Assembly: GCA_964509675.1 (NCBI GenBank)
Contig: CAZDXC010000002.1
Span: 71,425-135,424 of the forward strand
Length of the DNA: 64,000 nt
Direction of reading: 5' to 3'
Source of the DNA: Candidatus Woesearchaeota archaeon
GTDB lineage: Archaea > Nanobdellota > Nanobdellia > Pacearchaeales > GW2011-AR1
The translations under genes and the position numbers were made by a program. Below the pieces are notes generated by a model that made no database searches, had not been told where the DNA came from, and saw only the letters and a list, made by a program, of their open reading frames with translations. Shown here one piece after another: positions 18,905 through 64,000 of this stretch (position 1 is the stretch's first letter; every line of letters starts with the position of its first letter).

Positions 18905-20326
18905 GTGGCAAAAGTTTTGTTAATACAACCAAATAATGATATAAGAAAAAGAGAGATTAGTGCAGAACCTTTTACTCCATTAAGTTTAATCTATTTGGCT
19001 ACGGTTATAGAAGATAAACACTCCGTAAAAATTTATGATAGAAACTTAAATGTAAACGATTTTGCCTTTCTTGATTTTTTAAGGAAATACAATCCAGACA
19101 TAGTTGGATTTACAAGCAATACATCAGAAGTTTTATTTGATATAATCTTATTAGGAAAACTCATAAAAAAAGAATTCCCTAAACTGTTAATTGTTGTGGG
19201 AGGGCCTCACGCAACAATAGAACCAGATTCTGTTTTAAATGAGCCTTATGTGGATTATATAATTAGGGGGGAAGGAGAAGAAGCTTTTTTGGAATTTTGT
19301 GATACTTTTGATAAAAATCCTAAAAAACTTAAGATATTAAAAAACATTAATCATAATCTTTTAAGACCTTACTTAAATATGAACAATTTAAAAATTCCAA
19401 ATTATGGATTACTTGATTTAAAGAAATATAAGATATTCTACGTGAGCATGAATCGGGGTTGTCCAGGAAATTGCACTTTTTGCTATAATGTAAGAAGTTG
19501 GGGTAAAAATGGAAAAGCTTTTGTTAGAACATTTAGCTTAGAAAAATCAAAAGAATTATTCAAACAACTTGCTGAAAAATATCATTTTAAAGTATTTTCT
19601 ATAGTTGATGACCATTTTATTTCTAATAAGCCTTATGCAATTGAACTGTGTACTTATCTAAAAAATTTTAATTTCCATTTTTTTTGTTTTGGAAGAGCAG
19701 ATTATGTAGATGATGAAATATTAAAAGCCCTAAAAAAAGCCGGATGTCACACAATACAAATCGGTATAGAATCAGGCAGCCCCAAAATCTTAAATTTCCT
19801 CAATAAGCAGGTTACAGTTGAACAAAATAGAAAGGCAATAGAATGTTGCAGACGAAACAATATAATTTGCGATGCAAGTTTTATGCTTGGTTTGCCAATT
19901 GAGAATATCTTCAATATGAAAGAAACTGTAGATTTCATTAAAAAGACTAAACCTGATATTATAAACTTAAAAATTTATGATCCACTTCCCGGGGCCATTG
20001 TTTTTGATTTTTGTATTAGCAAGGGCTCATTAGTAAAACCACAAACTTTGGAAGATTGGGCTTCTTGGACAGGGAATATGAGCAGAGTAAACCATAATGT
20101 GAGCCAGGTATCAGATGAAATGATTTTAAAAACTGCAGAAGAAGTATGGAAAGTTAATTTTTATAAGACCAAATTTAAAAAATTAATTTTTTGGTTTAAA
20201 ATTGGAGAATATATTTATGCATTAAAGGGAATTAAGAGATTATTTTTTGATAGAAATCGTATAAGAATTCCTTTTATAGGTCATTTAAATTTAATAAAAA
20301 AGAAAAAAGAGATAAAAAATTATTAA
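18905..20326 (+). CDS. Cobalamin-binding (class B) radical SAM enzyme
   Basis: VVGGPHAT / IRGEGEEAF B12-domain-like region. MNRGCPGNCTFCYN cluster. Apparent GTG start. Confidence 0.8.
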   Translation: MAKVLLIQPNNDIRKREISAEPFTPLSLIYLATVIEDKHSVKIYDRNLNVNDFAFLDFLRKYNPDIVGFTSNTSEVLFDIILLGKLIKKEFPKLLIVVGGPHATIEPDSVLNEPYVDYIIRGEGEEAFLEFCDTFDKNPKKLKILKNINHNLLRPYLNMNNLKIPNYGLLDLKKYKIFYVSMNRGCPGNCTFCYNVRSWGKNGKAFVRTFSLEKSKELFKQLAEKYHFKVFSIVDDHFISNKPYAIELCTYLKNFNFHFFCFGRADYVDDEILKALKKAGCHTIQIGIESGSPKILNFLNKQVTVEQNRKAIECCRRNNIICDASFMLGLPIENIFNMKETVDFIKKTKPDIINLKIYDPLPGAIVFDFCISKGSLVKPQTLEDWASWTGNMSRVNHNVSQVSDEMILKTAEEVWKVNFYKTKFKKLIFWFKIGEYIYALKGIKRLFFDRNRIRIPFIGHLNLIKKKKEIKNY

Positions 20327-29662: not shown

Positions 29663-31057
29663 ATGATAAAGAGGATATTACTAATAAAGCTTGGAGCAAA
29701 AGGAGATGTAATCAGAACTCTTCCTTTGTTAATAGCAATAAAAGAGAGGTATCCTGATTCTGAAATAACATGGATTACAAAACCTTTATGTAAGGAGATT
29801 TTAGAAACAAGTCCTTATATAAATAGAATTCTAACAATTCCAGTCAATTTAAAAAGATTTTCTGAAGATTTTGATATTTTATTAAACTTTGATGTGGAAG
29901 AAGATGCAACAAAATTAGCAGAAGAAATAAAAGCAAGAAAGAAATATGGGTTTTTTTCACATGGAGAGTATCCCACATCATTTAACCTTTCTGCAGAATA
30001 TTATCTTAACACTCTTTTTGATGATGAATTAAAAAAAACAAACACAAAAACTTACCAACAAATGATGTTTGAAGTAGCAGAACTTCCCTATAAAAAACAG
30101 CATCATCCCCTTTATCTAAACGAAGAAGATATGAAATACGCAGAAGATTTTGTAAATAAACATAATATTAATCCAAAAAAATTAATTGGGATTCATGTAG
30201 GTTCCTCTCCAAGATGGCCCTCTAAAACATGGCATTTGGATATTGTAAAAGAATTTATAAAAAGAGCAAAGGAAAAAGGATATGAAATTCTTATTTTTAG
30301 GGGACCAGATGAGTCCGAGAAACATGAAATACTTATCAGAGATTTAGAAAATCAGGGGGTTGGGGTTTTTACAAATAATCCATTAAATAGAGACAGAGAA
30401 TTTTTATCTCTGATAAATCTATGTGAGAAAATCATATGTGGAGATACCTTTGCATTGCATGTTGCTTTATCTCTTAAAAAACCGACAGTTGGATTATTTT
30501 TCTGTACTTCTCCTAATGAAATTGAAGATTATGGATTATTAAAAAAAATACTCTCTCCAAGATTATATGATTTTTTCCCTGAAAAACAAAATCTATACGA
30601 TGAAGATTTGACAAAAAGTATCTCTGTTGAACAAGTCCTAAATTCTATAGAAAATTTTGAGAAAACAAAAAGAGTAATCAACACCATCATAAAGGACAAT
30701 GATAAAGTTTTAGTTATCAAAAGAAAAAGCGGAATTCACTCAGGAAAATGGGCTTTTCCAGGCGGCATTATGAAAGATAGTGAGACTATCGGAGAAACAT
30801 TAAAAAGAGAAATAAAAGAGGAAACTAACCTTGATGTTTATAATATAATCAAAAAAATTTCAGACTATTCTTATTGGGGAAAGGAAGGAGAAAAAATCTT
30901 GGGGGAATGTTATCTTGTAAATGTAAAAAATGGAGAAGTAAAAATAAATAAAGAAGCAGAAGAATTTAGATGGGTTTCTTTAGAAGAATTTGGGAAATTA
31001 AATTATATAGAGGGACTGGATAAAGAAGTTTTTTTGGCCTTTTATAATAAACAATAA
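29663..31057 (+). CDS. GT9 ADP-heptose-type heptosyltransferase fused to a C-terminal NUDIX hydrolase domain
   Basis: N-terminal ILLIKLGAKGDVIRTLPLL (RfaC/RfaF-like GT9 start). C-terminal Nudix box GGIMKDSETIGETLKREIKEETNL (GX5EX7REUXEEXGU). Confidence 0.7.
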   Translation: MIKRILLIKLGAKGDVIRTLPLLIAIKERYPDSEITWITKPLCKEILETSPYINRILTIPVNLKRFSEDFDILLNFDVEEDATKLAEEIKARKKYGFFSHGEYPTSFNLSAEYYLNTLFDDELKKTNTKTYQQMMFEVAELPYKKQHHPLYLNEEDMKYAEDFVNKHNINPKKLIGIHVGSSPRWPSKTWHLDIVKEFIKRAKEKGYEILIFRGPDESEKHEILIRDLENQGVGVFTNNPLNRDREFLSLINLCEKIICGDTFALHVALSLKKPTVGLFFCTSPNEIEDYGLLKKILSPRLYDFFPEKQNLYDEDLTKSISVEQVLNSIENFEKTKRVINTIIKDNDKVLVIKRKSGIHSGKWAFPGGIMKDSETIGETLKREIKEETNLDVYNIIKKISDYSYWGKEGEKILGECYLVNVKNGEVKINKEAEEFRWVSLEEFGKLNYIEGLDKEVFLAFYNKQ

Positions 31058-36193: not shown

Positions 36194-37197
36194 TATAAGT
36201 ATCCTTTTTCTTTATAATAGTTCACTGTTCTTTTTATTCCTTCTTCCAAGGAAAAAATTGGTCTATAACTTAATTCTTTTTCTGCTTTTGAAATATCACT
36301 ATACCAAAATTTTTCAGTCATCCATTTAATTGTATCATGTTTAAATGGAGGATGAAAGTTTAGTATTTTTCCTAAGAATTCTAGGAGATATCCTCCAGAA
36401 ATAAAAACAAATTTAGGAAATTTTATAAATAAAATTTTTTTATTTTCTGCTTTTTCCATAGCTTTAATTATTTGATTAATGCTGTAATGCTCTCCATTTG
36501 AAATATTGTATTTTCCCCCCACTTTTCCTTTCTTAATTGCTAATAAGCAGGCTTCAATTAAATTTTTAACATATAAAAATTCCATTCCTTTTATATTGCT
36601 TCTTATTGGAAAAAATCTTTTATTTACAGTCAAGAATAATTTCAGCATTTCAAAATCTCTCTCTCCAAAAACCATGGAAGGACGTAGTATAACAATCGGC
36701 ATTTTATATTTATTAAAATATTCCATTGCAATTTTTTCTTGAGCTAATTTGCTCCAACCATATATATCTACTGGCCTGCATTCTGTTTCTTCATTTACAG
36801 GGATTTCATCTCTTGTTGGTCCTACAGCAGAAATACTACTCATTATAATTATCTTTTTTATTTTTTTATTCTTACATGATTCTAAAAGATTTTTTGTTCC
36901 TTCCTCATTTATTTTAAAATATAAATCATTAGGAATAGTCATAGGTCTTGCAATTGCAGCCAAGTGAAAAATCACATCAATATTTTTAACAGCATCTTTC
37001 AATGAGCGTTTATCTAATAAATCTCCTTCAATGATTTCTATATTTAATCTTTTTAATAATTCTAACGAATCTCGCCTTTTTTCAGATCTTTTCTTTTCTT
37101 TTCTGACCAAAACCTTAATTTTATTTTTTTCTTTTGCAAGTCGTTCTACTAAATGACTTCCAATAAGCCCTGTTGCTCCTGTAACAAAAACTTTCAT
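36193..37197 (-). CDS. NAD-dependent epimerase/dehydratase (SDR)
   Basis: MKVFVTGATGLIGSHLVERL Rossmann motif. YGWSK (YxxxK). Start at MKV, giving a 4-nt overlap with the upstream radical SAM gene. Confidence 0.8.
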   Translation of the reverse strand: MKVFVTGATGLIGSHLVERLAKEKNKIKVLVRKEKKRSEKRRDSLELLKRLNIEIIEGDLLDKRSLKDAVKNIDVIFHLAAIARPMTIPNDLYFKINEEGTKNLLESCKNKKIKKIIIMSSISAVGPTRDEIPVNEETECRPVDIYGWSKLAQEKIAMEYFNKYKMPIVILRPSMVFGERDFEMLKLFLTVNKRFFPIRSNIKGMEFLYVKNLIEACLLAIKKGKVGGKYNISNGEHYSINQIIKAMEKAENKKILFIKFPKFVFISGGYLLEFLGKILNFHPPFKHDTIKWMTEKFWYSDISKAEKELSYRPIFSLEEGIKRTVNYYKEKGYL

Positions 37198-38648
37198 GGT
37201 AAAATAGGAGAAAAAATCCAAGCGATATAAGCAGCTATTTTTCTCATAGTTTTATTTTTCACCAACAATTTTGCAAAATTTTCTGTTAAAAAAAATGCAA
37301 GAATTTTTTCTATTTTTGGATAATCTTTTCTTTTTTTTGAATTTTTGCAGCTCCAGACATGTCCCAGTTGAGTCAAAAAAATCATCTCTCTATCAGAATA
37401 ATTTTTGGTATATAAAGGAGCATTTCCTGTTTTTGGATTGATATAATAAAGCCATAAATAATCATTAATCAGGCCTTCCTTTTTAGCAATATCATAAACA
37501 GTAGTTCCTGGGTAAATTGTCAAGGCATTAATTCCTATCCAGTCTGGTTTTGTTTCTCTTATCAATTCAAAAGTTTTCCATGTATCTTCTGCTTCCTCTT
37601 CAAGCGAGCCTACAATTAAAAAGAATTTTAATTCAATTTCTGCCTTTTTAGTCATTTCAGAAGCTTTTTTTATCTTTTCAATTGTAATATTTTTTCCAAT
37701 AGCTCTTAAAACTTTGTCTGAGCCAGATTCAGCGCCATATTCAATTAAATCACACCCTGCTTTTTTCAATATCTTTAGCATTTCTTCATCAACTGTGTCT
37801 ACTCTTGCCTGTATTCTAAATTTAATGGGAAGTTTATTTTTTATTACTAATTCACAAAATTTTATTACCTTCTCTTTTTTCAATGTGAATAAATCATCAG
37901 CAAATCTTATATAATCTATTCCATATTCTTGGTTCAATTCTTTTACTTGCTTAAATAATTTTTCAGCAGAGGTGCTTCTTACCTTTCTTCCCCAAGCAAG
38001 CGTAGTTTCACAAAATTTGCAACCCATAGGACATCCCCTTGAAGTTGTTACAAGTGTTGTTTGTTTTACATTTTTGACATCTGGAGGTAAGGGATATTCT
38101 TTCATAGGGAATAAATCATAAGCAGGAAGAGGAAGATTTTCTATATTTTCCATAAAACATCTTGGAGGATTAATTTTTATTTTTCCTTTTTCCCTAAAAG
38201 ATATTCCTAAAATCTTATTAATTTTTTTTTTATTTTTTATTGCCTTGATCAATTCATACAGAGTCTCTTCCCCTTCCCCCCTAACAACAATGTCAACAAA
38301 ATTGTAATTTTTTAACAGAAGACTATCTAAAAAAGTAGCATGCAATCCTCCAATTATCGTAATAATATCTGAATTTCTTTTTTTTATTTCTTCTAATGTT
38401 TTTAAGGCAGAATATCTATTTTCAGTTAAGCAGCTTACTCCAACTATTTTTGCTCTGGTTCTGATAGATTCACTTGCAGTTTTTTCAAAATTCCATCCTT
38501 TTATTGGAGCATCTATCACTTGAGATGATATTTCTCTCTCTCTTAAATAAGCTGCTAAACAAGCAATTCCCAATGGAACTCCTGACATGGGAAACTTACT
38601 GGTTGTTTTTTTATCTAAGGGGGGGTTAATTAAACAAATATCATTCAT
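37194..38648 (-). CDS. Cobalamin-binding (class B) radical SAM enzyme
   Basis: IIGGLHAT / VRGEGEET B12-like region. TSRGCPMGCKFCET cluster. Confidence 0.8.
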   Translation of the reverse strand: MNDICLINPPLDKKTTSKFPMSGVPLGIACLAAYLREREISSQVIDAPIKGWNFEKTASESIRTRAKIVGVSCLTENRYSALKTLEEIKKRNSDIITIIGGLHATFLDSLLLKNYNFVDIVVRGEGEETLYELIKAIKNKKKINKILGISFREKGKIKINPPRCFMENIENLPLPAYDLFPMKEYPLPPDVKNVKQTTLVTTSRGCPMGCKFCETTLAWGRKVRSTSAEKLFKQVKELNQEYGIDYIRFADDLFTLKKEKVIKFCELVIKNKLPIKFRIQARVDTVDEEMLKILKKAGCDLIEYGAESGSDKVLRAIGKNITIEKIKKASEMTKKAEIELKFFLIVGSLEEEAEDTWKTFELIRETKPDWIGINALTIYPGTTVYDIAKKEGLINDYLWLYYINPKTGNAPLYTKNYSDREMIFLTQLGHVWSCKNSKKRKDYPKIEKILAFFLTENFAKLLVKNKTMRKIAAYIAWIFSPILP

Positions 38649-41984: not shown

Positions 41985-43493
41985 TTATTGTTTAGATAAA
42001 ATTTTCTTCGGTAAAAAATCTCTTAAATGCCCAAAAACAGCCTTTATCCCTCTTAAATTAAATTTGAGATCATTCAAATTTTGTATATTTTTTGTTCTTT
42101 GAATAATATAACTTGGGGTTAAAAATATTGTGTAGATTTTTCCGCAAATATTTGCAATTTCCTTGGCTCTTTCAGAATCAGAGTGAATTTGATCTTTTTC
42201 ATCAGAATTTTTAGTTTTCAAAACAGGTTCCTTCATATCATATCTTTCATATTCTTCAGGAGAAAATAAAAATTCATTTTTCTCTTTTGCTTCTTTCCAT
42301 AAAAGAGTTCCTGGATAAGGAACAAGGACTGTAGCCTGAAGAAGGTCTGCCTTGCCTTTTTGCATTAATTCTTTTGCTAAATTAAAGGTTCTCAGTGCAT
42401 CCTCTTTATTCTCCCAAGGATATCCCACAATCATTGTCAAATGAACAGTTAATCCTGCTTTTTTTGCCATTTCACATCCATTAAGTATATCTTCAACTTT
42501 TATTCCTTTATTCAGTTTGTCTAGTGTTTTCTGATTTGCACTTTCTAATCCAAATTTCAACAATCTAAATCCTGCTTTTTTCATCAAATTGAAATCTTCT
42601 TGTTTTAATGCTCCAAATCTCATGTTACAGGAATATTTTATTTTTTTATTATATCTCCTTTCTATCAGTCCATTGCATAATTCTGTAAGCCAGTTTCCTG
42701 TCATCAACGTTCCAGAATCATCAAAGATTTCTTTTGCATTATATTTGTCAATTAACATTCCTATTTCATCAAGAACATTTTCAACACTCCTGACTCTGAA
42801 TTTTGGAAAAAGGGTCGGCCATGCACAGAATTTGCATTTTCCCCACCAACAATCTCTCCCAGACATTATATAAAAAAATGGTTTCCCTTGTAAGTTATAC
42901 TCTTTTTCATACAATTTCCATTTTGTTAATTCTCTGTCAATAAAAGGAAGTTCATCCAAATTATGTTTCAGGTTAAATTTTCCAGAATTGATTATCTTAT
43001 TATTTTTTCGATAATATATTCCTTCAGGAATTCTTTTTTTATTTCCTGAAAGCCAATCACAAAGAGCAGAAAGACTAAAATCAAAATCTCCCCCTTGCAA
43101 GACAAAATCCACTCTGGAATTTTCAAGACTTTCCTTTGGAAGAAAAGTAACATGGTCCCCCATTATTACTATTTTCATTTCAGGGAATTTCTCTTTTAAT
43201 TTGTCAATAATTCTCCAATGTTGCTTTATTACAGGGGTTTTGGTTTCAAAAGCAAATAATTCTGGTTTTTCATTTTCAATTGTTTTTGTAAATTCTTCCC
43301 ATGAAATATTTTCTGCTATGCAATCCTTCCAAATTACTTCATTTCCATTTTTTTTTAAAAGAGTTGCCGCGCTTCCTAATACGACAGGAAATAAATAAGA
43401 AGGATTTGAAAACCATTGAAATTGCCTGTTTTGGCTTAACAATGCAACTCCTTTCTCTGATTTTAGCGGAGGATATCCTATAAGAATTTTCAT
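41985..43493 (-). CDS. Cobalamin-binding (class B) radical SAM enzyme
   Basis: N-terminal B12-like domain (IVIMGDHVT). SGRDCWWGKCKFCAW Cys cluster. ESANQ and VGYPWE radical SAM core motifs. Confidence 0.75.
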   Translation of the reverse strand: MKILIGYPPLKSEKGVALLSQNRQFQWFSNPSYLFPVVLGSAATLLKKNGNEVIWKDCIAENISWEEFTKTIENEKPELFAFETKTPVIKQHWRIIDKLKEKFPEMKIVIMGDHVTFLPKESLENSRVDFVLQGGDFDFSLSALCDWLSGNKKRIPEGIYYRKNNKIINSGKFNLKHNLDELPFIDRELTKWKLYEKEYNLQGKPFFYIMSGRDCWWGKCKFCAWPTLFPKFRVRSVENVLDEIGMLIDKYNAKEIFDDSGTLMTGNWLTELCNGLIERRYNKKIKYSCNMRFGALKQEDFNLMKKAGFRLLKFGLESANQKTLDKLNKGIKVEDILNGCEMAKKAGLTVHLTMIVGYPWENKEDALRTFNLAKELMQKGKADLLQATVLVPYPGTLLWKEAKEKNEFLFSPEEYERYDMKEPVLKTKNSDEKDQIHSDSERAKEIANICGKIYTIFLTPSYIIQRTKNIQNLNDLKFNLRGIKAVFGHLRDFLPKKILSKQ

Positions 43494-46315: not shown

Positions 46316-49120
46316 TTAATACTCTCCAGGTATTACTTTCTGAAACTCTAATGGATATTCTGTGCTTAAATAGGTAGAATTTAATTCCATATTAAGAGGA
46401 TAATTTATCTGCCAAATCTTGACAGGCCCCTGGAATCCCTGATAATAAACAAAATCTCCAACATTAAGTCCTTGTTTTGTGAGATCATCAATTATTAAAT
46501 TTTGCTCTGTATGCACTAATTTGAAATAATCTGATTGTTCATTGAACAAATAAAGCTTTACTAATTCAGAATGAATTGTCTTTTCACTTAAATAAAATGC
46601 TGCCCCCTTTTTGTCAAGACTTAATTTGCCGTTTTGAGAATTATCTAATTTTGGATACACAAAGATTCCTGCATCTAATCCCTTTTTAAAATCATGCAAT
46701 TTGTTGTTAATGTAGACATATCTTAAAGGCATTTGGTATTGTTGTTGTTTATATACAAAGAAAACCATTGGCTGAAGTATCTCTTCATTTTTATTTTCCC
46801 TCAGTGCAACTGCAGCAACAATAGTTTTTTTTCTGGGCAATAAAATTTCTTTTCCATCTTGGTTTAGTATGATGTCCTTATCAGTTATGCTCCCAACAGG
46901 GTATATGTAACTTGTTTCATTATTTGTTTCCCTTGTTTGTGACGGGTCTAAAAGGGCAGTTGGAATCCATGAATAACGATCATAATTTCCATTGGAACCA
47001 ATACTAGAAAAAGCAGGATATTTTCCTATATCTGTTGAATCAATTAATAAATGTGTTCCATTATGAGCATAAAGAAAATCAAGTGCCATCTTTTCATCTT
47101 CTCCGGTAAGTACTAATCTTCCCATAAAATAATTCCAATAACCGATAGCATTTCCCCCATCCAAAATTGTGGCTCTTTCTCCAATACTTTGAACCCAGTA
47201 CCCGTAGTCCCACCAGTGCGCAAAAACTGCATTTGTAGGAGTATTGTCTCTCACCCATGCCATTGCTTTTTGCCATTGCCACTGGTACAAACCAGGGGCA
47301 AAATTTTCAGCCATGTTTTTATCACTTTGGTAATATGCCCAAACAGTGAAGATAGATGCAATTAGTATAATTAAGACAGCAATTCCGACAAAAATTTTGT
47401 TACTTTCTTCTTTTTCACGGAGATATTTTTGAGAACTCTTTGTAATTAAGAATGCAATTGCAATCGGACTTACTGCTCCCAAGACCATTATTAATCTTAT
47501 CGCCCCTCTTGCAGCAACAACCATCATTGTAAAAATGATAAAATAAAATATATATGAAAAATTAAATTCTTTGAAAATTGAAAATTTTTCTCCTCTGTGT
47601 CTTTTGAAGTAGATGTATCCAAAGGCAAAGATAAATGCGAGTGTTCCGCCAAAATAAACAAATAAACTCAAACCACTTTCCCCATTAAGAATGCTCCCCG
47701 AGGAATATTTACTGAAGATTAAACTCAATAAGAAAATTATATAACCCAATGTTAGAATTATCTTTTCTTTTTTAGCAAGGGGTTTTATCATATGATAAAA
47801 TAAATAAACTGAACCAATAAAAAATAACCAAAAATATAAGGGTATATTCAATACAACAGGGCCAAATTCTCCTACCCAGTCATTCATAAAGTATGGCTGT
47901 TTATTCTCTGCAACAGTTACTCCAAATCTGCTTGGAGTGAATGGTTCTACTGCATGAGATATAACATCTTTAGCCATTCCAGGAACGAAAGAAATTCCAA
48001 ATGCAATTGAAGATAGAATTATTAATAATCCTGAAGCAACAATGATGGAAATAATCTGTCTTGGAAGTTTTATTTTTTTTAATTTGTCATTTAGGTTAAA
48101 TATCCTCTTTTTGAATAATAAAAAATCAATAAACAAAATAAAAAATATCATAAAAGCTAATCCTGTAGAACTTGAAGTAGCTAAACTTTTAATTGTATAT
48201 CTTGTTGAAAAAGGCATCATAATTAGAATTGATGAAACGAGCCATAAAGAATAAAAAAAGAATCTTTTTTTATTAACTTTCCCAAGTAAAAAAGCAAATA
48301 AAACTGCTCCTGCAATCCCCAAAAAAGCAAAAGTCACTCCCCCCCAAACTAATCCTAATGCGCCCGTGAATATTCCTGCCAATACACTAAAAATTATTCC
48401 TCTTTTTAATTTTCCAGAGGTATAAGCTTCCAAGAAAAAATAAAATGCCATAAATAAGAAAAAGAAAGCTGCAGATTCTTTTTCTGGAATTCCTGCAATT
48501 GTTCTTGAAAGAAGTGAAGGAACCAAAATGAACAGGGCAGTTGCAATCAATGCAATTATGTTTGCTATTTTTTTATCTTCTTTATAGAATAATTTACGGG
48601 CAAATAAGAAAAATGCAATTCCTGTCAAAACTGCCATAACTACAGGAAAGATAATTGAGGCGTAGGTTACTGTAACATTTTTATCAAAAAAAGATAAAAA
48701 TTTGTAGAGAGAACTCATCATATATGGGAGCAATCTCATCTCTCCTGCAGTATTTACAGCATCACACGCATTCCCAGAACAAATCTGCGCCAATGGAACA
48801 TATCTCATTGTATCTAAAACAAATAATTTCCCATGTTCTACTATGTATTTCGCCCATCGCAGAAATAAAAATGGGTCTAAATCAGGTCCTAATGTCCATG
48901 TTCCTGTTGTGATGTCTTTCAATTTTGGAATATTTCTTGTTCTTATATAAACACTAACAGAAAGAATAATTGTCAGAATAACATAATAAATCCAATTTCC
49001 ACTTTTTTTAAAAAAATCAATTATTTTTTTCTTTCTTTTTTCTATTTCTTCTCCAGAAAAAACAGAATCTTTTTTTTCTGAACTTACTAATCCTATCTCT
49101 TCCACCATAAAAAACTCCAA
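46316..49120 (-). CDS. aglB: Archaeal oligosaccharyltransferase AglB (STT3 family)
   Basis: 934 aa. N-terminal 13-TM region with DLDPF loop. Canonical WWDYG motif (FAHWWDYGYW). C-terminal soluble domain. Confidence 0.85.
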   Translation of the reverse strand: MEFFMVEEIGLVSSEKKDSVFSGEEIEKRKKKIIDFFKKSGNWIYYVILTIILSVSVYIRTRNIPKLKDITTGTWTLGPDLDPFLFLRWAKYIVEHGKLFVLDTMRYVPLAQICSGNACDAVNTAGEMRLLPYMMSSLYKFLSFFDKNVTVTYASIIFPVVMAVLTGIAFFLFARKLFYKEDKKIANIIALIATALFILVPSLLSRTIAGIPEKESAAFFFLFMAFYFFLEAYTSGKLKRGIIFSVLAGIFTGALGLVWGGVTFAFLGIAGAVLFAFLLGKVNKKRFFFYSLWLVSSILIMMPFSTRYTIKSLATSSSTGLAFMIFFILFIDFLLFKKRIFNLNDKLKKIKLPRQIISIIVASGLLIILSSIAFGISFVPGMAKDVISHAVEPFTPSRFGVTVAENKQPYFMNDWVGEFGPVVLNIPLYFWLFFIGSVYLFYHMIKPLAKKEKIILTLGYIIFLLSLIFSKYSSGSILNGESGLSLFVYFGGTLAFIFAFGYIYFKRHRGEKFSIFKEFNFSYIFYFIIFTMMVVAARGAIRLIMVLGAVSPIAIAFLITKSSQKYLREKEESNKIFVGIAVLIILIASIFTVWAYYQSDKNMAENFAPGLYQWQWQKAMAWVRDNTPTNAVFAHWWDYGYWVQSIGERATILDGGNAIGYWNYFMGRLVLTGEDEKMALDFLYAHNGTHLLIDSTDIGKYPAFSSIGSNGNYDRYSWIPTALLDPSQTRETNNETSYIYPVGSITDKDIILNQDGKEILLPRKKTIVAAVALRENKNEEILQPMVFFVYKQQQYQMPLRYVYINNKLHDFKKGLDAGIFVYPKLDNSQNGKLSLDKKGAAFYLSEKTIHSELVKLYLFNEQSDYFKLVHTEQNLIIDDLTKQGLNVGDFVYYQGFQGPVKIWQINYPLNMELNSTYLSTEYPLEFQKVIPGEY

Positions 49121-57476: not shown

Positions 57477-57974
57477 CTAAGAAAATTCTGTCTGAAAATT
57501 CTCCTCCATAAATTTAATTATTTCTTCTGATGTTATTTTTTGTCTCGCAGGAATTTTCCCTCTTTTTATTTTTTTTATTCTAGATCTTTTTCCTGCCCTT
57601 TTGAACACTACTGTAACATCCAAACCCATAATTCCTATATCTCTTTGGTATTCCATTCCAGGAATTTCAATATATTCTTTAATTCCAAAAGAAAAATTGT
57701 TTGTGCTTATCTGTTTTTTCCTTAATTTATTATCTATAACAACCAACATCCTTTTCAGAATTTCGTTGATGTTTTTTCTGATTGTGACCATTGCACCCAC
57801 TTCTAATCCTGGACGAACTCCGAAGGCAGGAATTCTTTTATGAGATTTCATCTTAGCTGGTTTTTTTCCTGTAATCAGTTTTAGCAATTTTACTCCCTTT
57901 TCCAATTGTTCCGCAGTTCCGCCTATGCTTAACACAATTTTTTCTATTTTTATCGCTTGCATTTTTTCTGCCAT
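57477..57974 (-). CDS. rpl5: 50S ribosomal protein uL5
   Basis: IEKIVLSIG start. GMDVTVVF region. Confidence 0.9.
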
Positions 57975-57975
57975 C

Positions 57976-58626
57976 TTATTCCACCACCATCAGTTGTTTT
58001 AACAAGATATTGATCTCTTTTTTGCCTATCTTAACTTTTGCAGTTTTTCCTTTTAAATCTAATTTTTCCATTTCTCCTCTCTTTCCTATATGTTTTCCTG
58101 CAAATATGATTACTTTTTCTTTTTCCTTTAAGGGAAGGCATTTTTCTATCTTTCTTTCCTTTAAATTAACAACAACAGAATCATTAATCTTGCATTTGAT
58201 CTCTGACAAAAAGTTTCTTCCGTCACTTAAATTTAACTGAGCTTTCTTTCCTTTTAATATTTTTTTATTGATTATTTTTACTATTTTTTTACTTGTTTCA
58301 CTTTCTTTTATTTCTTTAAGATAAAATTTTCCCTTTTCAGAGAGCTCCAATCTGTAATATTTTTTCAAGGGAATCATATTAATGGTGTCAAATAATAAAA
58401 TAGTATTTTTTTCATTTGTTATTGGTTTTTCATTTACCAATACATTTTTTGAATGGATTATTTTTTTTACTTCATTTCTGTTTTGGGCTATCTTTAACAT
58501 ATCCCTAAGTACAATCAGTGTTGGAACCCCTTCTCTTATGCTGAATTTTGGTTTAACTACATATTTTTTTCCTTTTCTTGCTATTGGCCAGTTCTTTGGC
58601 ATTGATTGTCTTTTTATGTGATTCAT
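57976..58626 (-). CDS. rps4e: 30S ribosomal protein eS4
   Basis: HIKRQSMPKNWPIARKGKKYVVKP N-terminus. Confidence 0.9.
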   Translation of the reverse strand: MNHIKRQSMPKNWPIARKGKKYVVKPKFSIREGVPTLIVLRDMLKIAQNRNEVKKIIHSKNVLVNEKPITNEKNTILLFDTINMIPLKKYYRLELSEKGKFYLKEIKESETSKKIVKIINKKILKGKKAQLNLSDGRNFLSEIKCKINDSVVVNLKERKIEKCLPLKEKEKVIIFAGKHIGKRGEMEKLDLKGKTAKVKIGKKEINILLKQLMVVE

Positions 58627-59036
58627 TTCTTTTTCTCCTGAGTTTTACTTTCTGTTTTTTTCTCTTTTTGAGCTTTAATCCTTTTTTTATCTTCTAAATC
58701 TAGTTCAATAATTTGTAGATTCGAAGGATGTATTTTCACGTTAACTTTGCTTCCGTCTTGTTTTTTTATCATAATTCCTTCTATCCTTATTTTTGAATTT
58801 TTTACATCTATGGATATTATTTTTCCCTGTTTTTTTCTGAATTTTCCTTTCATAATTTTAACAGTGTCTCCTTTTCTTGCAGGAATGTTTCTTCTGGTGT
58901 ATTTTTTTCTTAATTCTTTTGATAAATTTACACCCAATAATTTTCTTTTTATATGCAAAGGAGCATTTGCTAAGTATTTTCTCTGCCTACGTGGCTGAGA
59001 ACTTGCCTTCCAATGTTTGCTGAATTTTTGTTTCAT
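58623..59036 (-). CDS. rpl24: 50S ribosomal protein uL24 (KOW; Lys-rich C-tail)
   Basis: KGDTVKIMKGKFRKKQGKI KOW motif. Start placed at the internal Met directly after uL14. Confidence 0.85.
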   Translation of the reverse strand: MKQKFSKHWKASSQPRRQRKYLANAPLHIKRKLLGVNLSKELRKKYTRRNIPARKGDTVKIMKGKFRKKQGKIISIDVKNSKIRIEGIMIKKQDGSKVNVKIHPSNLQIIELDLEDKKRIKAQKEKKTESKTQEKKK

Positions 59037-59037
59037 T

Positions 59038-59439
59038 TTAATATACACTAGATGCGATTTTTGCAACTGAAGGCCACCGCTCCATAACTTCCCTTGCAAC
59101 TACTCCTTTAATCTGTGTTCCTTTTGGATTTCCTTTTTCGTCCTTCAAAAGAGCAACTGCATTGTCTTCAAATGCAATTCTCTCTCCATTTAGTCTCCTG
59201 TAGGGTCTTTTTTGTCTTACCACTATTGCATCAAATACTTTTCCTTTCATGTCTGGAACACCTTTTCTCACACTTACTTTTACCCAATCTGCTATTTTTG
59301 CATATCCCTGTCTTCCTTTTGTGCTTTTTCCTCTCTTTACAGAGACAAGTTTGACAATCTTTGCTCCGCTATTATCAGCAGCAATAATTTCTGCTCCAAG
59401 ATTTAATCCACGTGTTACTTTTGCATTTATTGCTTTCAT
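59038..59439 (-). CDS. rpl14: 50S ribosomal protein uL14
   Basis: GLNLGAEIIAADNSGAK signature. Confidence 0.9.
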   Translation of the reverse strand: MKAINAKVTRGLNLGAEIIAADNSGAKIVKLVSVKRGKSTKGRQGYAKIADWVKVSVRKGVPDMKGKVFDAIVVRQKRPYRRLNGERIAFEDNAVALLKDEKGNPKGTQIKGVVAREVMERWPSVAKIASSVY

Positions 59440-59786
59440 TTAGTTTCTCCTGATTTTATTTTTTTAATTACAACAAAATGGATTATCTTGCTTAATGGAC
59501 GACATTCCTGCACCATTATATAATCTCCAATATTGATTTCATTTTCCATACAAGAAGGAAGATGTGCATGGATTTTTGTTTTTGATTTAAAATATCTCTC
59601 ATATTTTCTTGAATAAATCATTCTTTCAAATTCAATTACAATCCTGCCTTTGAATTTTTTGGTTACCTTTCCCTCAAAAATTCTTCCTCTTACTTTCAAA
59701 TTTCCATGAATGTGACATTTCTTATCATTGCAGATAGCTCCGGCTATCTCTTTTCCTTCTATCTTTTTATTTTCTTTCTTTTTCAT
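59436..59786 (-). CDS. rps17: 30S ribosomal protein uS17
   Basis: CNDKKCHIHG...VRGRIFEGKV archaeal uS17 N-terminus. Confidence 0.85.
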   Translation of the reverse strand: MKKKENKKIEGKEIAGAICNDKKCHIHGNLKVRGRIFEGKVTKKFKGRIVIEFERMIYSRKYERYFKSKTKIHAHLPSCMENEINIGDYIMVQECRPLSKIIHFVVIKKIKSGETK

Positions 59787-59801
59787 TTTCTGTTTGTTGT
59801 G

Positions 59802-60095
59802 TTAATCTATCGCCTCTTCATCAAATCCAAGTTTCACAAGAGCTTCTTTTATCTTCTTCCTGTGGTCTCCTTGAAGCTCTACTTCATTGTTTCTGTAAGT
59901 TCCGCCGCATGCAAGCTCATTTTTCAGGGCTTTTGCGATTTCTTTTACATTCACTCCATCAAGTCCACTTACGATAGTGACATACTTCCCGTATCTTTTT
60001 CGTTCGGTAGTCACTTTTATATTCTGTGAACCCTTTGCGATTTTTTCACACACACAGGCTTGCTTAGGCAAGCCACATTTTGGACATATTTCCAT
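59802..60095 (-). CDS. Translation initiation factor aSUI1 (eIF1 homologue) with N-terminal zinc ribbon
   Basis: CPKCGLPKQACVC zinc ribbon. SUI1 fold. Conserved position between uL29 and uS17. Confidence 0.75.
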   Translation of the reverse strand: MEICPKCGLPKQACVCEKIAKGSQNIKVTTERKRYGKYVTIVSGLDGVNVKEIAKALKNELACGGTYRNNEVELQGDHRKKIKEALVKLGFDEEAID

Positions 60096-60099
60096 TGTT

Positions 60100-60315
60100 T
60101 TACTTATTTATCTCAATTTTCTTTGAAGATTTGTCTTCTTCATTATTGAGTGTGAATATTCTTGCAATTATTTTTTTAATCTCCTTTGTCTTTGAAGTTC
60201 CTGTCTTTGAAGCATGAGCCTTGGATTTTACCAATTCAAATTTTAATTCTTCTATTTTTTTCATTCTTTCTTCCTTGTTCATTTTTTTGATATCTTTTGT
60301 TTTTAATGTTGCCAT
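60100..60315 (-). CDS. rpl29: 50S ribosomal protein uL29
   Basis: 71 aa helical. MATLKTKDIKKMNKEERMKKIEELKFEL. Confidence 0.85.
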   Translation of the reverse strand: MATLKTKDIKKMNKEERMKKIEELKFELVKSKAHASKTGTSKTKEIKKIIARIFTLNNEEDKSSKKIEINK

Positions 60316-60316
60316 T

Positions 60317-61012
60317 TTATTTTTTCTTCACTTTTCTCTTTGGTTTTTCTTCCTTCTGCTTTTCAGCTTCTATATTTATTTTTAATTTTTCTAAAACATC
60401 TTTATTAATATCCAGTCTGTCCTTTAGAATTGCGTAAGGAGAAAGAATACTAACTTTAACTCCGATTGTTCCAGGTCTTGTCTGTGCTACTGCTTTGGCT
60501 CTGTCAACGACTTTTGCACTGTCTCCGATTTTCTTTAAATATCCTTGTGCAAATCTCCATGTTTTTGCTCTTGAACCAGGAAGTTTTCCACTTAAAATAA
60601 TTTCTGCCCCCAAAGCTCCCGCATCCATTATTTTTTGCAGACTTTTATATGCTATAACTTTGAATTTTAAAGGCCCAAGTCTCTCTAACCCGAGTGCAAT
60701 TTCATCTGCAACTATCTGCGCATCAAACTCGGGCTGTTTTATTTCATCAATTTCTACTCTTGGATTTTCAAGTTTGAATTTTGTTTTTAATACATTTGTA
60801 AGTTCATCTATTTTTTCTCCTCTTTTTCCTATAATCAATCCCGGTTTGTTTGTTGAAACAATGACTTTTTCTCCTACTGGAGTATATTCTATTTTTACTT
60901 TGCTTATTTTCCCCTTTCCAAGTATGCTTTTAATATATTCCTTAATAGCAAACTCGTCTTTCTTAAATTTTACAATATTTTTTTCTTCCATCATGAAAAA
61001 TCCCAACTCCAA
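60317..61012 (-). CDS. rps3: 30S ribosomal protein uS3 (KH domain; Lys/Glu-rich C-tail)
   Basis: KH motif GLIIGKRGEKI. The start may be the internal MMEEK. Confidence 0.9.
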   Translation of the reverse strand: MELGFFMMEEKNIVKFKKDEFAIKEYIKSILGKGKISKVKIEYTPVGEKVIVSTNKPGLIIGKRGEKIDELTNVLKTKFKLENPRVEIDEIKQPEFDAQIVADEIALGLERLGPLKFKVIAYKSLQKIMDAGALGAEIILSGKLPGSRAKTWRFAQGYLKKIGDSAKVVDRAKAVAQTRPGTIGVKVSILSPYAILKDRLDINKDVLEKLKINIEAEKQKEEKPKRKVKKK

Positions 61013-61072
61013 GGGAATGTTTCATCCGCAAGTCTTAGCTGAGGACTGAAAAAATTTATTTCTTCTTTCATT

Positions 61073-61672
61073 TTAACTTCTTGGTTTTTTCTCGATAGCT
61101 TTTATTTTAATATGAGTCCTTTTTTTTCTGACACTCCCAAATCTGCCATAGGGTTGTGAAGCTTTATTTGAAACAGCCTCATTGATTATCGGTTCTTCCA
61201 ATCCATTTACATTTGAATTTGCCTGCAGGTTTTTTAACATCTTTATAAAAAATCCAATGGCCTTTATAGGATATCTTCCCGACATAATTTTTCCTTTTCT
61301 GTGGGGAATTTCTCCTTTCATTGGAATTGCTTTTTTAAATTTCAAAACTTCCTCTAAATCTGCAATTGCCTTTCTTATACTTTTCTTTTTTATGAATTTA
61401 CAGATTGCAACAGAATCTTTTGTTGATATTGGCAAACTAATCCCATTAATAACTGCCTCATCTTTTTTGATTTTCTTTTCTTTCTTTTCTTTTTTTTCAA
61501 CCTTTTTTTCTTCTTTTTTCTCGGTTTTTTCAACTTCTTCGACTTTTGTTGCTTTAGTTTCAACCTTTTTTTCTTCTTTTACAGGAGTTTCTATTTTTTG
61601 CTCTGCTGCATTTTTTTGTTTTTGCATTGTTTTCATCATTTTTTGATGTGGGTTATAATCTTTTTCTGTCAT
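61073..61672 (-). CDS. rpl22: 50S ribosomal protein uL22 with ~70-aa N-terminal Lys/Glu-rich low-complexity extension
   Basis: C-terminal uL22 core. N-terminal (E/K)n repeats. Confidence 0.8.
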   Translation of the reverse strand: MTEKDYNPHQKMMKTMQKQKNAAEQKIETPVKEEKKVETKATKVEEVEKTEKKEEKKVEKKEKKEKKIKKDEAVINGISLPISTKDSVAICKFIKKKSIRKAIADLEEVLKFKKAIPMKGEIPHRKGKIMSGRYPIKAIGFFIKMLKNLQANSNVNGLEEPIINEAVSNKASQPYGRFGSVRKKRTHIKIKAIEKKPRS

Positions 61673-61677
61673 TTTGA

Positions 61678-62076
61678 TTATTTCTTAGATTGGGATTTAC
61701 TTCCTTTTGTTGCTCCAACTCCTGCACTTCCATGTTTAATTTTTCCTCTTGTTGGAGAAAATTCTCCTAATCTATGCCCCAACATTTGGTTTGTTATTTC
61801 TACTGGGACAAATGTATGTCCGTTGTAAATTTGAATTCTCATTCCAACCATCTGAGGAACAATAACTAATTCTCTCTTGTGAGTTTTTACTAGTTTATTT
61901 TTCTCTATTTTTTTCTTTGCTCTGCTGATGAAATTTTCTATAATCTGAAAATGTTTGAGAACAGCCCTTCTCTGCCGAGCTTTTAAATATTTTGCAAATT
62001 CCCGAACATCTAAAGATTTCAGTTCTTCAATAGTCTTTCCACGAAATGTAAATTGTTTTTTAATTAATTCTGGCAT
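61678..62076 (-). CDS. rps19: 30S ribosomal protein uS19
   Basis: NGHTFVPVEI...GHRLGEFSPTR signature. Confidence 0.9.
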   Translation of the reverse strand: MPELIKKQFTFRGKTIEELKSLDVREFAKYLKARQRRAVLKHFQIIENFISRAKKKIEKNKLVKTHKRELVIVPQMVGMRIQIYNGHTFVPVEITNQMLGHRLGEFSPTRGKIKHGSAGVGATKGSKSQSKK

Positions 62077-62077
62077 T

Positions 62078-62779
62078 TTATCTTTTCTTCTTTCCTGTTC
62101 TCTTTGGCCTTAATAATCCTACTTTTGCTCCAGGAGGAGCATTTCTTTTGGCAATTTTTCCCTTTATTCTTTTTCCTCTACCGCTTCCGAAAGGATGGTC
62201 TATTGCATTCATTTTTACTGCAGAAGTTCTTGGCCATAATTTATTTCTTGATTTTTTAATATAAAAGTTCTTACCTGCTTTAACAATCGGTTTGTCCAGT
62301 CTTCCTGCCCCCGCAACAACCCCAATTATTGCCCTGCATTTAGGATTGAATTTTTTTTCTTTTTTGGAAGGCATTAAAATAAAAATGTTTTTCCCCACAA
62401 TTCTATTAACAATAGCAAAACTTCCTGCCGTTTTTATGAATACACCTCCATCTCCGGGCCTTGATTCTATATCATAAATGAATGTTTTTATTGGAATATC
62501 TTTTAATCTCAAGATATTTCCATCTTTAATTTCATTTCCTTCAAAATTTATTTTTTGCCCTTCAATCATTCCTTTGCATGCAGGAATGTAGAATATTCCT
62601 TTATTATATCTGATTTTTGCCAAAGGAGCAGAGTGTCCCGGTGAATTAAATAATTCTACAACAATTCCTTCTTTAGTAAGTTCTCGTGGATATTTTAATC
62701 TGAATCTGTAAGCATTTCTTCTTACTCTGTAACTGAAACTTCCTTTTCCTCTAGCCTGTTGAATTATTCTTTTTCCCAT
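62078..62779 (-). CDS. rpl2: 50S ribosomal protein uL2
   Basis: GKRIIQQARGKGS start. GGVFIKTAG and HPFGSGRG motifs. Confidence 0.95.
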   Translation of the reverse strand: MGKRIIQQARGKGSFSYRVRRNAYRFRLKYPRELTKEGIVVELFNSPGHSAPLAKIRYNKGIFYIPACKGMIEGQKINFEGNEIKDGNILRLKDIPIKTFIYDIESRPGDGGVFIKTAGSFAIVNRIVGKNIFILMPSKKEKKFNPKCRAIIGVVAGAGRLDKPIVKAGKNFYIKKSRNKLWPRTSAVKMNAIDHPFGSGRGKRIKGKIAKRNAPPGAKVGLLRPKRTGKKKR

Positions 62780-62784
62780 TTTCC

Positions 62785-63024
62785 TTACATTAATCCTAAT
62801 TTCGTTGCTATATCAATAGCAGGAAATTCTTTTTTTAATTTAACATAAACATATTTTTTGTTTCCTTTAATCATTGTTCTTAAACTTTTGATTTTAACAT
62901 TGAATAAATTTGCAATTTCTTTTGCAATCTCAATCTTTGTTCTTTCTTTTTCAGTTACAAAAGTCAAAACATTTTGCATTTCTATTGCCATAACTGCTTT
63001 TTCTGTTACAATCGGTTTCATCAT
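62785..63024 (-). CDS. rpl23: 50S ribosomal protein uL23
   Basis: 79 aa. KPIVTEKAV...TFVT...KIEIAKEI pattern. Confidence 0.85.
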   Translation of the reverse strand: MMKPIVTEKAVMAIEMQNVLTFVTEKERTKIEIAKEIANLFNVKIKSLRTMIKGNKKYVYVKLKKEFPAIDIATKLGLM

Positions 63025-63641
63025 TTTCTTAATTCCTCTGGAATTTTATATTTTGAAAATTTAGAAAATAAATTTTTTCCATATATTAATCTTGAAAAAC
63101 ATTCTGCTTCTAATTCACAATCTTCTAATGCATTATGAGCATTTCTATTATCTTCCATTCCAACAAAATTTAATATGTTTTTTAAGCCCATGTCAGTATA
63201 ATCCTCTTTAATCAAAAATTTTTTATAAATATCAAAATATCTTATTAATGCAATTGTTGATATGTCCAAAGTTCTATGATAAAAAGGAACTTTTAACCCA
63301 TATTTATTTGCCTTTGTCCAGATAAATCCATAATCAAATTGCGGATTATGACATATAAAGTTTTTAATCTTACATTTTTTAATAAATTCAAAGAAATTTT
63401 CTATTAATTGTTTCTCTGATTGTTTATCCTTATCTCTCATCTGTTCTTCTGTCATATCTACAACTTCTATAACTGATTTTGCATTTACTAAATTTGTTGC
63501 ATTTATTATTTCATATTCTTCATTTAGTCTAGCATTCTCAAGGAAAATATTTTTAGGATTTTCTAACTCAATTGCTCCAATCTGTAAAATTCCGCATTTA
63601 GTGAAATCTGCTCCGCTTGTTTCAATATCTACAACTATCAT
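63021..63641 (-). CDS. DEDDh-family (DnaQ-like) 3'-5' exonuclease embedded in the ribosomal protein operon
   Basis: Exo I VVDIETSG. Exo II HNPQFDYGFI. Exo III HNALEDCELE (H-x4-D). 206 aa. 4-nt overlaps with both the uL4 stop and the uL23 start. Confidence 0.7.
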   Translation of the reverse strand: MIVVDIETSGADFTKCGILQIGAIELENPKNIFLENARLNEEYEIINATNLVNAKSVIEVVDMTEEQMRDKDKQSEKQLIENFFEFIKKCKIKNFICHNPQFDYGFIWTKANKYGLKVPFYHRTLDISTIALIRYFDIYKKFLIKEDYTDMGLKNILNFVGMEDNRNAHNALEDCELEAECFSRLIYGKNLFSKFSKYKIPEELRK

Positions 63642-64000
63642 TTTAGTTTTTCTCCTATCTCATCAATTGCTTTTTCAGTGTAAATTGTAAGTCTCCCAAT
63701 CCCCCCTTTTGCGAGATCACTCACATTCAAATTCCCAACATTTTTTGTATCTATTATGTTTGTTTTTAATTTTTCTTTCTTTCCTGTTACTAAGAGCAAC
63801 CCCAAATTTTTTTTGTATTTTCTTCCCCTTGATTTTCCCTTTCCACTTCTTATTGTTTTTTTCTTTAGAGATATTTCAAACAAATCCCCCAGAATTTTTT
63901 TCAGACTCTCTATTAAGGTTTTTGTTTTCAAAGAAATTATTTTTGATTCAACGACAATTGGCAGCCCCGAAATTTTTTTGCTTTTTAATTTTTCATATCT
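63638..64000 (-). CDS. rpl4: 50S ribosomal protein uL4 (3' portion; gene continues beyond the window end)
   Basis: SGKGKSRGRKYK and C-terminal AKGGIGRLTIYTEKAIDEI match archaeal uL4. Expected position upstream of uL23. Confidence 0.75.
   Translation of the reverse strand, partial: RYEKLKSKKISGLPIVVESKIISLKTKTLIESLKKILGDLFEISLKKKTIRSGKGKSRGRKYKKNLGLLLVTGKKEKLKTNIIDTKNVGNLNVSDLAKGGIGRLTIYTEKAIDEIGEKLK

Follow-up and report, generated by a model that had tools for sequence, protein, structure and literature searches.

A stand-alone DEDDh exonuclease gene that recurs, without being fixed, between uL4 and uL23 in an archaeal ribosomal operon

The window analysed here, a 64 kb stretch of contig CAZDXC010000002.1 of a Candidatus Woesearchaeota archaeon, ends within a ribosomal protein operon in which a gene for a stand-alone DEDDh exonuclease lies between the genes for the ribosomal proteins uL4 and uL23 (Table 1). 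We refer to this gene and its product as EXO and to its subfamily as type A. Its ribosomal proteins and the taxonomy of the matches mark the host as an archaeon. Few gene orders in prokaryotes are as constant as uL3-uL4-uL23-uL2, and a conserved enzyme gene inside the uL4-uL23 pair, apparently coupled on both sides, is unusual.

An initial annotation, made from the window sequence, had described an open reading frame (ORF) of 206 amino acids (aa) with three exonuclease motifs and with overlaps of four nucleotides (nt) to both neighbours, and this description holds. The motifs DIETSG (residues 5-10), HNPQFDYGFI (98-107) and HNALEDCELE (169-178) are all located in the translation, and both overlaps can be read directly from the DNA: at 63638-63641 an ATGA (TCAT on the plus strand) lets the TGA stop codon of uL4 share bases with the ATG of EXO, and at 63021-63024 a second ATGA does the same for the TGA of EXO and the ATG of uL23. 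The uL4 fragment at the window end has no Pfam match by itself; it corresponds to the C-terminal half of the full-length uL4 from a syntenic complete genome (L001 in our numbering of loci; tblastn, 45% identity, E 7e-18), and that full-length protein matches Pfam Ribosomal_L4. Because the four-nt overlaps leave zero intergenic space and motifs resembling Shine-Dalgarno (SD) sequences precede both start codons, co-transcription of EXO with the ribosomal operon and translational coupling, as proposed in the initial annotation, are very likely on sequence grounds. A consensus scan for sigma-70 promoters and intrinsic terminators found no terminator-like site on the minus strand between 60000 and 64000, but such a scan lacks archaeal signals and is uninformative here.

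The gene is neither an artefact of AT-rich DNA nor the product of an assembly error. A search with the EXO of the window yielded 379 homologous clusters at E<=1e-3 in a database clustered at 90%, and the order uL4-EXO-uL23 is present in independent assemblies, among them the complete 648-kb genome CP070794.1 (L001), L149, L017-L036, L072 and others.

Table 1. Features at and downstream of the uL4-EXO-uL23 junction, in window positions
Feature	Position	Strand	Basis
EXO, stand-alone DEDDh (DnaQ-fold) 3'-5' exonuclease gene, 206 aa, type A	63021..63641	-	ORF list, ATG start
uL4 gene, 3' part, 121 codons, open to window end	63638..64000	-	open frame; tblastn to L001 uL4
uL23 gene	62785..63024	-	Pfam Ribosomal_L23, 43.7 bits; sequence read
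SD-like GGAG within the C-terminal codons of uL4, 10 nt 5' of the EXO ATG	63642..63656	-	inferred from sequence
SD-like GAGG within the last EXO codons (..IPEELRK*), 10 nt 5' of the uL23 ATG, CCAGAGGAATTAAGAAAATGATG	63025..63040	-	inferred from sequence
Ribosomal operon downstream of EXO/uL23: uL2, uS19, uL22, uS3, uL29, SUI1, uS17, uL14, uL24, eS4, uL5	57477..62779	-	ORFs; Pfam and synteny

Comparison of the occupied junction of the window (..GGAGAAAAACTAAAATGATAGTT, then EXO, then ..GAGGAATTAAGAAAATGATGAAACC..) with the empty junctions of close relatives reveals a difference of exactly one ORF, with AAAATGA at each border. In the empty site of L070 a single ATGA contains both the stop of uL4 and the start of uL23 (..GGAGAGAGAATAAAATGATAAAACC..), and the GGAG before the EXO ATG of the window is the same element that precedes uL23 in the empty-site relatives whose junctions were compared (L070, L068 and L075). 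The flanking AAAATGA repeat might be taken for a target-site duplication, a reading that we reject. Every family member begins with ATGAT(H)GT, which encodes a conserved Met-Ile-Val N-terminus, so that the 5' ATGA is intrinsic to the EXO family, and in a genome this rich in AT many C-termini are rich in Lys. The repeat is hence no evidence for transposition. The 3' ATGA overlap varies with genomic context, being present in 22/23 cases in the ribosomal operon, in 10/16 next to GINS and in only 3/33 elsewhere. The composition of EXO is not foreign: its GC content of 0.249 is the same as that of uL23, and it matches the flanking genes.

The same observations bear on the idea that EXO is a selfish or defence cassette, that is, a mobile DEDDh gene (similar to Cap18 or to CRISPR-DEDDh enzymes) which spreads by horizontal transfer and targets ATGA junctions in operons with high expression. 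We consider this very improbable, since the 5' ATGA is explained by the conserved Met-Ile start and the composition equals that of the flanking genes. In addition, no integrase, transposase, repeats or cas/CBASS genes adjoin EXO in the loci inspected, a scan of 2.9 million viral contigs yielded no relatives, and the family, which seems to be widely distributed in the clade, is under strong purifying selection.

The catalytic residues of EXO are D5, E7, D103, H169 and D174. The initial annotation had made its case dependent on the conservation of the motifs and on a match to Pfam RNase_T (PF00929). All five residues of Exo I, Exo II and Exo III, including the acidic one of Exo II, are invariant in an alignment of 50 close homologues (52-83% identical), and RNase_T matches EXO with 42.6 bits against a gathering threshold of 24. 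Among 76 aligned sequences of the family, Exo I (D5, E7) and D103 of Exo II (HNPQFD) are invariant too, whereas D174 is replaced by Gly in 17/76 members (KPHNALNGAK..); the protein of the window retains the Asp. All 17 of these belong to a distant branch of candidate phyla radiation (CPR) bacteria, Parvarchaeum and Micrarchaeota (L039-L063), in which the other four catalytic residues are invariant.

Profiles of named enzymes place EXO within the fold without assigning it to any of them. A match to the Rv2179c-like family (PF16473; 35.7 bits against 27, residues 2-184) overlaps the stronger RNase_T match and adds no functional resolution. The strongest profile match is the PADLOC model of CRISPR-associated DEDDh enzymes (PDLC01247; 69 bits, E 1.6e-19). 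In NCBIfam, EXO reaches no equivalog cut-off for the epsilon subunit (PRK05711, 45.7 bits against 196; TIGR01406, 36.7 against 222.7), PolC (40.8 against 873), RNase T (TIGR01298, 34.8 against 246.2) or oligoribonuclease (Orn/REXO2; PRK05359, 19.2 against 106). An AlphaFold2 model built from the 50-homologue alignment (mean predicted local distance difference test, pLDDT, 95.8; predicted template modelling score, pTM, 0.90) has an RNase H-like alpha/beta fold. Its conserved C-terminal tail is modelled at pLDDT >93 and is probably folded; a reading of this tail as a PIP box (PCNA-interacting peptide) or other clamp-binding segment was rejected, as inspection of the consensus found no canonical PIP box. 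EXO thus appears to be a bona fide and active DEDDh exonuclease that is not the equivalog of any named enzyme, and neither its sequence nor its fold separates an RNA from a DNA substrate.

The closest sequences of known structure are, in order, the CRISPR-linked DnaQ domain of S. thermophilus, the PolC exonuclease domain of T. maritima, Cas2-DEDDh and RNase T. The CRISPR-associated DEDDh/DnaQ enzymes (Cas2-DEDDh, PDB 8fyc; S. thermophilus DnaQ, 8h18/8h2f), which trim 3' overhangs of single-stranded DNA, provide the best match in sequence and profile (top phmmer hit in the PDB 3.9e-06, Foldseek rank 1). Unlike them, EXO is stand-alone, carries no Cas2 fusion and has ribosomal proteins as neighbours; no cas genes or CRISPR array were found near it in the window or in those loci of relatives that were annotated or inspected. 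From the epsilon subunit of Pol III and the PolC exonuclease domain (PDB 1j53, 2p1j) it is set apart not only by scores that fall well short of the equivalog cut-offs of 196 and 873 bits but also by its C-terminal tail, which is family-specific (..GKxLFxxFxxYxIPxYLxK) and not an alpha-binding segment, and by its archaeal host, which would lack Pol III, judging from the taxonomy of the matches. RNase T is a gammaproteobacterial enzyme and an obligate homodimer, in which basic nucleotide-binding segments face the active site of the partner; the E. coli and P. aeruginosa proteins (PDB 3ngy, 2f96) are only 19-23% identical to EXO, and TIGR01298 remains far below its cut-off. The eukaryotic ERI1/3'hExo and Rex-type DEDDh RNases are even less similar (14-17% identity) than the bacterial-type enzymes, and EXO has no SAP or other accessory domain and shows no sign of orthology with them.

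EXO belongs to a large and uncharacterised family of stand-alone exonucleases, found mostly in DPANN archaea of the Pacearchaeota/Woesearchaeota type and with distant members in other DPANN archaea and CPR bacteria. The 120 best matches listed for the window protein are all approximately 200 aa long, and the named ones come from metagenome-assembled genomes labelled Pacearchaeota, Nanoarchaeota or 'archaeon', with one labelled Patescibacteria. Type B, a second subfamily, comprises proteins of 215 aa that contain two short insertions and show 42-48% identity to the EXO of the window; a type B query retrieved another 339 clusters, hardly any of them shared with the type A set. A profile search of a library clustered at 50% found 136 representatives at E<=1e-30, and 446 when the limit was relaxed to E<=1e-10; almost all are single-domain proteins of approximately 200 aa that align from end to end. 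One protein from a Logan run, P0001, is 100% identical to the EXO of the window. Distant members, 30-36% identical, were found in Aenigmarchaeota, Micrarchaeota and Parvarchaeum as well as in CPR bacteria (Saccharibacteria, Paceibacterota), and they keep both the MIVVDIETSG N-terminus and the ..AEAFSRL..GK.L...F..Y.IP.YL C-terminal tail. NCBI already labels homologues '3'-5' exonuclease'; a literature search of partial coverage found no description of the family or of its placement between uL4 and uL23.

Two tandem EXO-EXO fusions, P0240 (399 aa) and P0255 (386 aa), each have one copy without the catalytic DxE: the second copy of P0240 reads HIK at this place, and the first copy of P0255 reads DIK. 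These tandem forms suggest that the enzyme acts as a dimer. Another protein, P0308 (321 aa), is a fusion of EXO with a PemK/MazF toxin domain. In L043 (6001-6632) EXO is frameshifted and appears as two tblastn segments in different frames, representing a pseudogene or a sequencing error. On two contigs labelled Patescibacteria (L004 and L007) EXO is 53% identical to that of the window, is nested in the archaeal clade with 64-72% bootstrap support and adjoins genes for LigD_N, UDG, Fpg, RecO and HisRS; either a transfer from archaea to CPR bacteria or a mis-binned contig would account for this.

The genomic position of the family was surveyed from two sides. A survey anchored on EXO, with one genome per species, comprised 63 loci, in which 34 homologues are at least 40% identical: 10/34 are located at uL4|uL23, 15/34 directly upstream of GINS51 and 9/34 elsewhere, with neighbours such as UDG/Fpg or cysteine desulfurase. 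None of the distant homologues among these 63 loci is found in a ribosomal operon. Next to GINS51, EXO usually overlaps that gene, and a gene of the phosphoglycerate mutase type lies further upstream. The latter is a cofactor-independent apgM-like gene (Metalloenzyme/PhosphMutase) in nine loci (L002, L006, L009-L011, L016, L032, L033, L037) and a His_Phos_1 gene in five (L005, L008, L011, L015, L020); a gene for an FtsY/SRP54-type GTPase is nearby in 11 loci of this context. In L148 the order is aIF2alpha-EXO-Nop10, with ATGA overlaps on both sides and an EXO 71% identical to that of the window, and on one separate contig EXO stands beside RNase HII and SMC.

A second survey, not biased by the presence of EXO, was anchored on uL2 and comprised 80 metagenomic loci (uL2 68-88% identical to that of the window), 61 of them with an assessable junction. 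EXO is present in 15/61 uL4|uL23 junctions (approximately 25%); in the other 46/61, uL23 follows uL4 directly or almost directly. The closest relatives of the window (L068, L069, L070, L071 and L075; uL2 84-88% identical) have an empty junction, and L072 and L073 (83-85%) have a type B gene there, approximately 47% identical to the EXO of the window. The association of a DEDDh gene with this junction, on which the initial annotation had built, is hence upheld in its recurrence across independent genomes but not as a fixed trait. Two of the empty junctions (L069:3707-3758 and L071:363-414) contain a conserved mini-ORF of 16 codons, MTELTFSTNKNSGEFS and MTEQSSAQIQNQGGFA, which fills a 53-nt spacer and overlaps its neighbours at both ends, through ATGA at the uL4 stop and through TAATG at the uL23 start.

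The history of EXO at this junction is discordant with that of its host operon. Across 26 occupied loci, the identity of EXO is weakly related to that of uL23+uL2 (Spearman 0.27): L073 is 83% identical to the window in the ribosomal proteins and 48% in EXO, whereas L001 is 52% identical in the ribosomal proteins and 62% in EXO. EXO presence is patchy on the ribosomal protein tree. In a bootstrapped neighbour-joining tree the EXO of the window groups with those of L150 and L149, likewise in ribosomal context (85%), then with that of L148 from the aIF2alpha/Nop10 context (86%) and then with that of L001, again ribosomal (90%), while L072/73/94/98/105 form a separate clade with 100% support. Given the patchy presence, the discordant identities and the clade of mixed contexts, we conclude that EXO has been gained, lost, relocated or replaced at uL4|uL23 several times.

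Such turnover could also be accommodated if uL4|uL23, and the ribosomal operon at large, were a preferred landing site in Pacearchaeota-type archaea for repeated and seamless cassette swapping, perhaps by recombination between overlapping stop/start junctions of the ATGA type or by homologous exchange through the conserved flanks, with EXO, specific to DPANN and CPR, as the one insert kept there by selection as a ribosome-biogenesis nuclease that acts on nascent ribosomes or on rRNA 3' ends. EXO would then be a previously unrecognised, lineage-specific ribosome-biogenesis nuclease. We regard this combination as decidedly doubtful.

EXO is not the sole guest in the operons of this lineage. At the operon junctions of relatives, gaps of 180 nt or more that contain ORFs on the same strand were found in 19/58 cases at uL3|uL4, 16/86 at uL23|uL2, 11/79 at uL2|uS19 and 4/25 at uL4|EXO. 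Small same-strand inserts of this kind occur in the uL3..uS19 blocks of L017, L018, L024, L027-L030, L034, L036, L068-L147, L151 and L153; the inserted ORFs are 50-210 aa long and mostly singletons without a Pfam match. Those that can be named include a NUDIX hydrolase between uL4 and EXO (L017, L029) and an HD/YfbR-like phosphohydrolase (L018), and among the distant bacterial family members one is directly preceded by NUDIX (L047) and another by Ham1/ITPase (L049). One family of 161-173 aa without a Pfam match is located at uL2|uS19 in L109 (1645-2166) and at uL3|uL4 in L131 (206-712) and L139, which suggests that inserts move within the operon. Non-ribosomal inserts are thus common in the lineage, and EXO is the sole one that recurs at one fixed junction. 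Embedding as such has parallels among archaeal housekeeping genes: SUI1/aIF1, the RNase P protein Rpp29, SecY and adenylate kinase are likewise non-ribosomal genes within ribosomal or informational operons. These guests, however, are ancient and fixed across archaea, whereas EXO is lineage-restricted, patchy and placed inside the otherwise invariant uL4-uL23 pair.

What does the position between uL4 and uL23 imply for the function of EXO? With moderate confidence we favour the view that EXO is a housekeeping 3'-end exonuclease, for which uL4|uL23 is a recurrent but facultative expression slot and not a functional signature. The operon would supply constitutive, growth-coupled expression without implying a ribosome-specific task, and EXO would be translated by coupling or re-initiation through the SD-like motifs embedded in the preceding gene. 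By the established DEDDh chemistry, the enzyme, probably a homodimer, would hydrolyse single-stranded 3' ends one nucleotide at a time by a two-metal-ion mechanism and release 5'-mononucleotides. It would most likely serve as a constitutive, growth-coupled enzyme that trims or degrades 3' ends and oligonucleotides, comparable to RNase T, Orn, ExoX and TREX.

Several points weigh against this view or its parts. The uL4|uL23 junction is the commonest single location across two divergent subfamilies, and in ribosomal context EXO is always directly upstream of uL23, with no gap of at least 180 nt in 29 EXO|uL23 junctions. So fixed a spot just before uL23 could mean that co-expression with ribosome components is selected for, which would point to a role related to the ribosome. 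Moreover, the dimer inference stands on two fusion proteins, and the trees are neighbour-joining trees of short proteins with a weakly supported backbone.

The initial annotation had gone further and had seen in EXO a dedicated exoribonuclease for the 3'-end maturation or quality control of rRNA and tRNA, an analogue of RNase T, Rex or ERI1 that possibly offsets a reduced RNA-decay machinery. Indications of an RNA-side role are the ribosomal operon itself and the aIF2alpha/Nop10 context, the fact that EXO resembles RNase T and Rv2179c, and the absence of Csl4, which Cluster-2 DPANN have lost. A dedicated factor of this kind is nevertheless unlikely and is not supported by the surveys: the closest relatives of the operon have no insert, many members of the family are coupled to GINS51 or stand beside RNase HII/SMC or UDG/Fpg, and the operon of this lineage takes up unrelated inserts as well. 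The RNase T equivalog model, at 34.8 of 246 bits, is far out of reach, and the top sequence and profile matches are DNA-acting DEDDh enzymes. Compensation for a missing exosome, also proposed, is not supported either, and the argument for it is weakened by the retention of Rrp4/41/42 in the DPANN cluster of this lineage (PMC7414124).

A DNA-side role is suggested by these best matches, i.e. the CRISPR-associated DEDDh model, the DnaQ of S. thermophilus, the PolC exonuclease domain and Cas2-DEDDh, and by the NCBIfam epsilon models, which outscore RNase T. Neighbourhoods point in the same direction: GINS51 lies directly downstream of 15/34 close homologues, usually in overlap, and other neighbours comprise RNase HII with SMC, UDG, Fpg, LigD_N, RecO and the nucleotide-sanitising enzymes NUDIX, Ham1 and an HD 5'-deoxynucleotidase-like protein. 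EXO could accordingly be imagined as a trans-acting proofreading or 3'-end clean-up exonuclease, similar to epsilon, ExoX or TREX, that is merely parked in a highly expressed operon. This specific version appears to us fairly unlikely. Archaeal replicases possess proofreading domains of their own, the epsilon and PolC cut-offs are all missed widely, and the C-terminal tail is probably folded and without a canonical PIP box in its consensus. Furthermore, Gins15/51 and aIF2alpha-Nop10 are both parts of the PPsG-LSIN replication-translation supercluster (Berthon et al. 2008, PMC2643942), and the GINS51 and aIF2alpha/Nop10 contexts are therefore ambiguous between a DNA and an RNA role.

Genomic context failed as an arbiter between the two at larger scale, too: among 126 neighbours counted for distant homologues (TrpRS/TyrRS 7, bL9 3, bL27 2, the rest singletons), no theme dominates. 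For the housekeeping exonuclease that we favour, we give roughly equal weight, each short of an even chance, to DNA-side replication or repair clean-up and to RNA-side trimming of stable RNAs or clearance of oligoribonucleotides, and about half of that weight to the scavenging of nucleotides from either. DPANN archaea and CPR bacteria are nucleotide-auxotrophic episymbionts, and the distribution of the family over both groups would fit a recycling of oligonucleotides.

As a protein, EXO is a new representative of a well-known kind of enzyme; unusual are its location, the recurrence in two subfamilies, the instability among close relatives and the insert-permissive operon. One DPANN lineage uses its ribosomal operon as a flexible expression platform: EXO is present in approximately one quarter of the uL4|uL23 junctions, and other junctions contain small, unrelated ORFs by the dozen. 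This cautions that position in an operon is a poor guide to function in ultra-compact genomes. This also bears on pipelines for ribosomal-protein-based binning and phylogenomics that presume a fixed gene order. The observation further draws attention to a large exonuclease family common to DPANN archaea and CPR bacteria, with RNA maturation, replication fidelity and nucleotide recycling as candidate roles.

In the remainder of the operon in the window (57477..62779), no second non-canonical insert was seen. There, uL2, uS19 and uL22 were identified by Pfam, and the genes from uS3 to uL5 were named by synteny with the Pfam-annotated L001, in which the order is the same. The uL22 protein (61073-61672, minus strand) has a Lys/Glu-rich N-terminal extension of approximately 75 aa, and Pfam Ribosomal_L22 covers residues 79-190 only. 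Scans of all 64 kb (1-64000) found no tRNA gene, no Rfam family at the gathering threshold and no Rfam CRISPR match. Much of the window is occupied by a large glycosylation cluster, to which belong three paralogous B12-binding radical-SAM proteins (18905-20326, plus strand; 37194-38648 and 41985-43493, minus strand), a fusion protein of glycosyltransferase-9 and NUDIX (29663-31057, plus strand) and an STT3-type oligosaccharyltransferase of 934 aa (46316-49120, minus strand).

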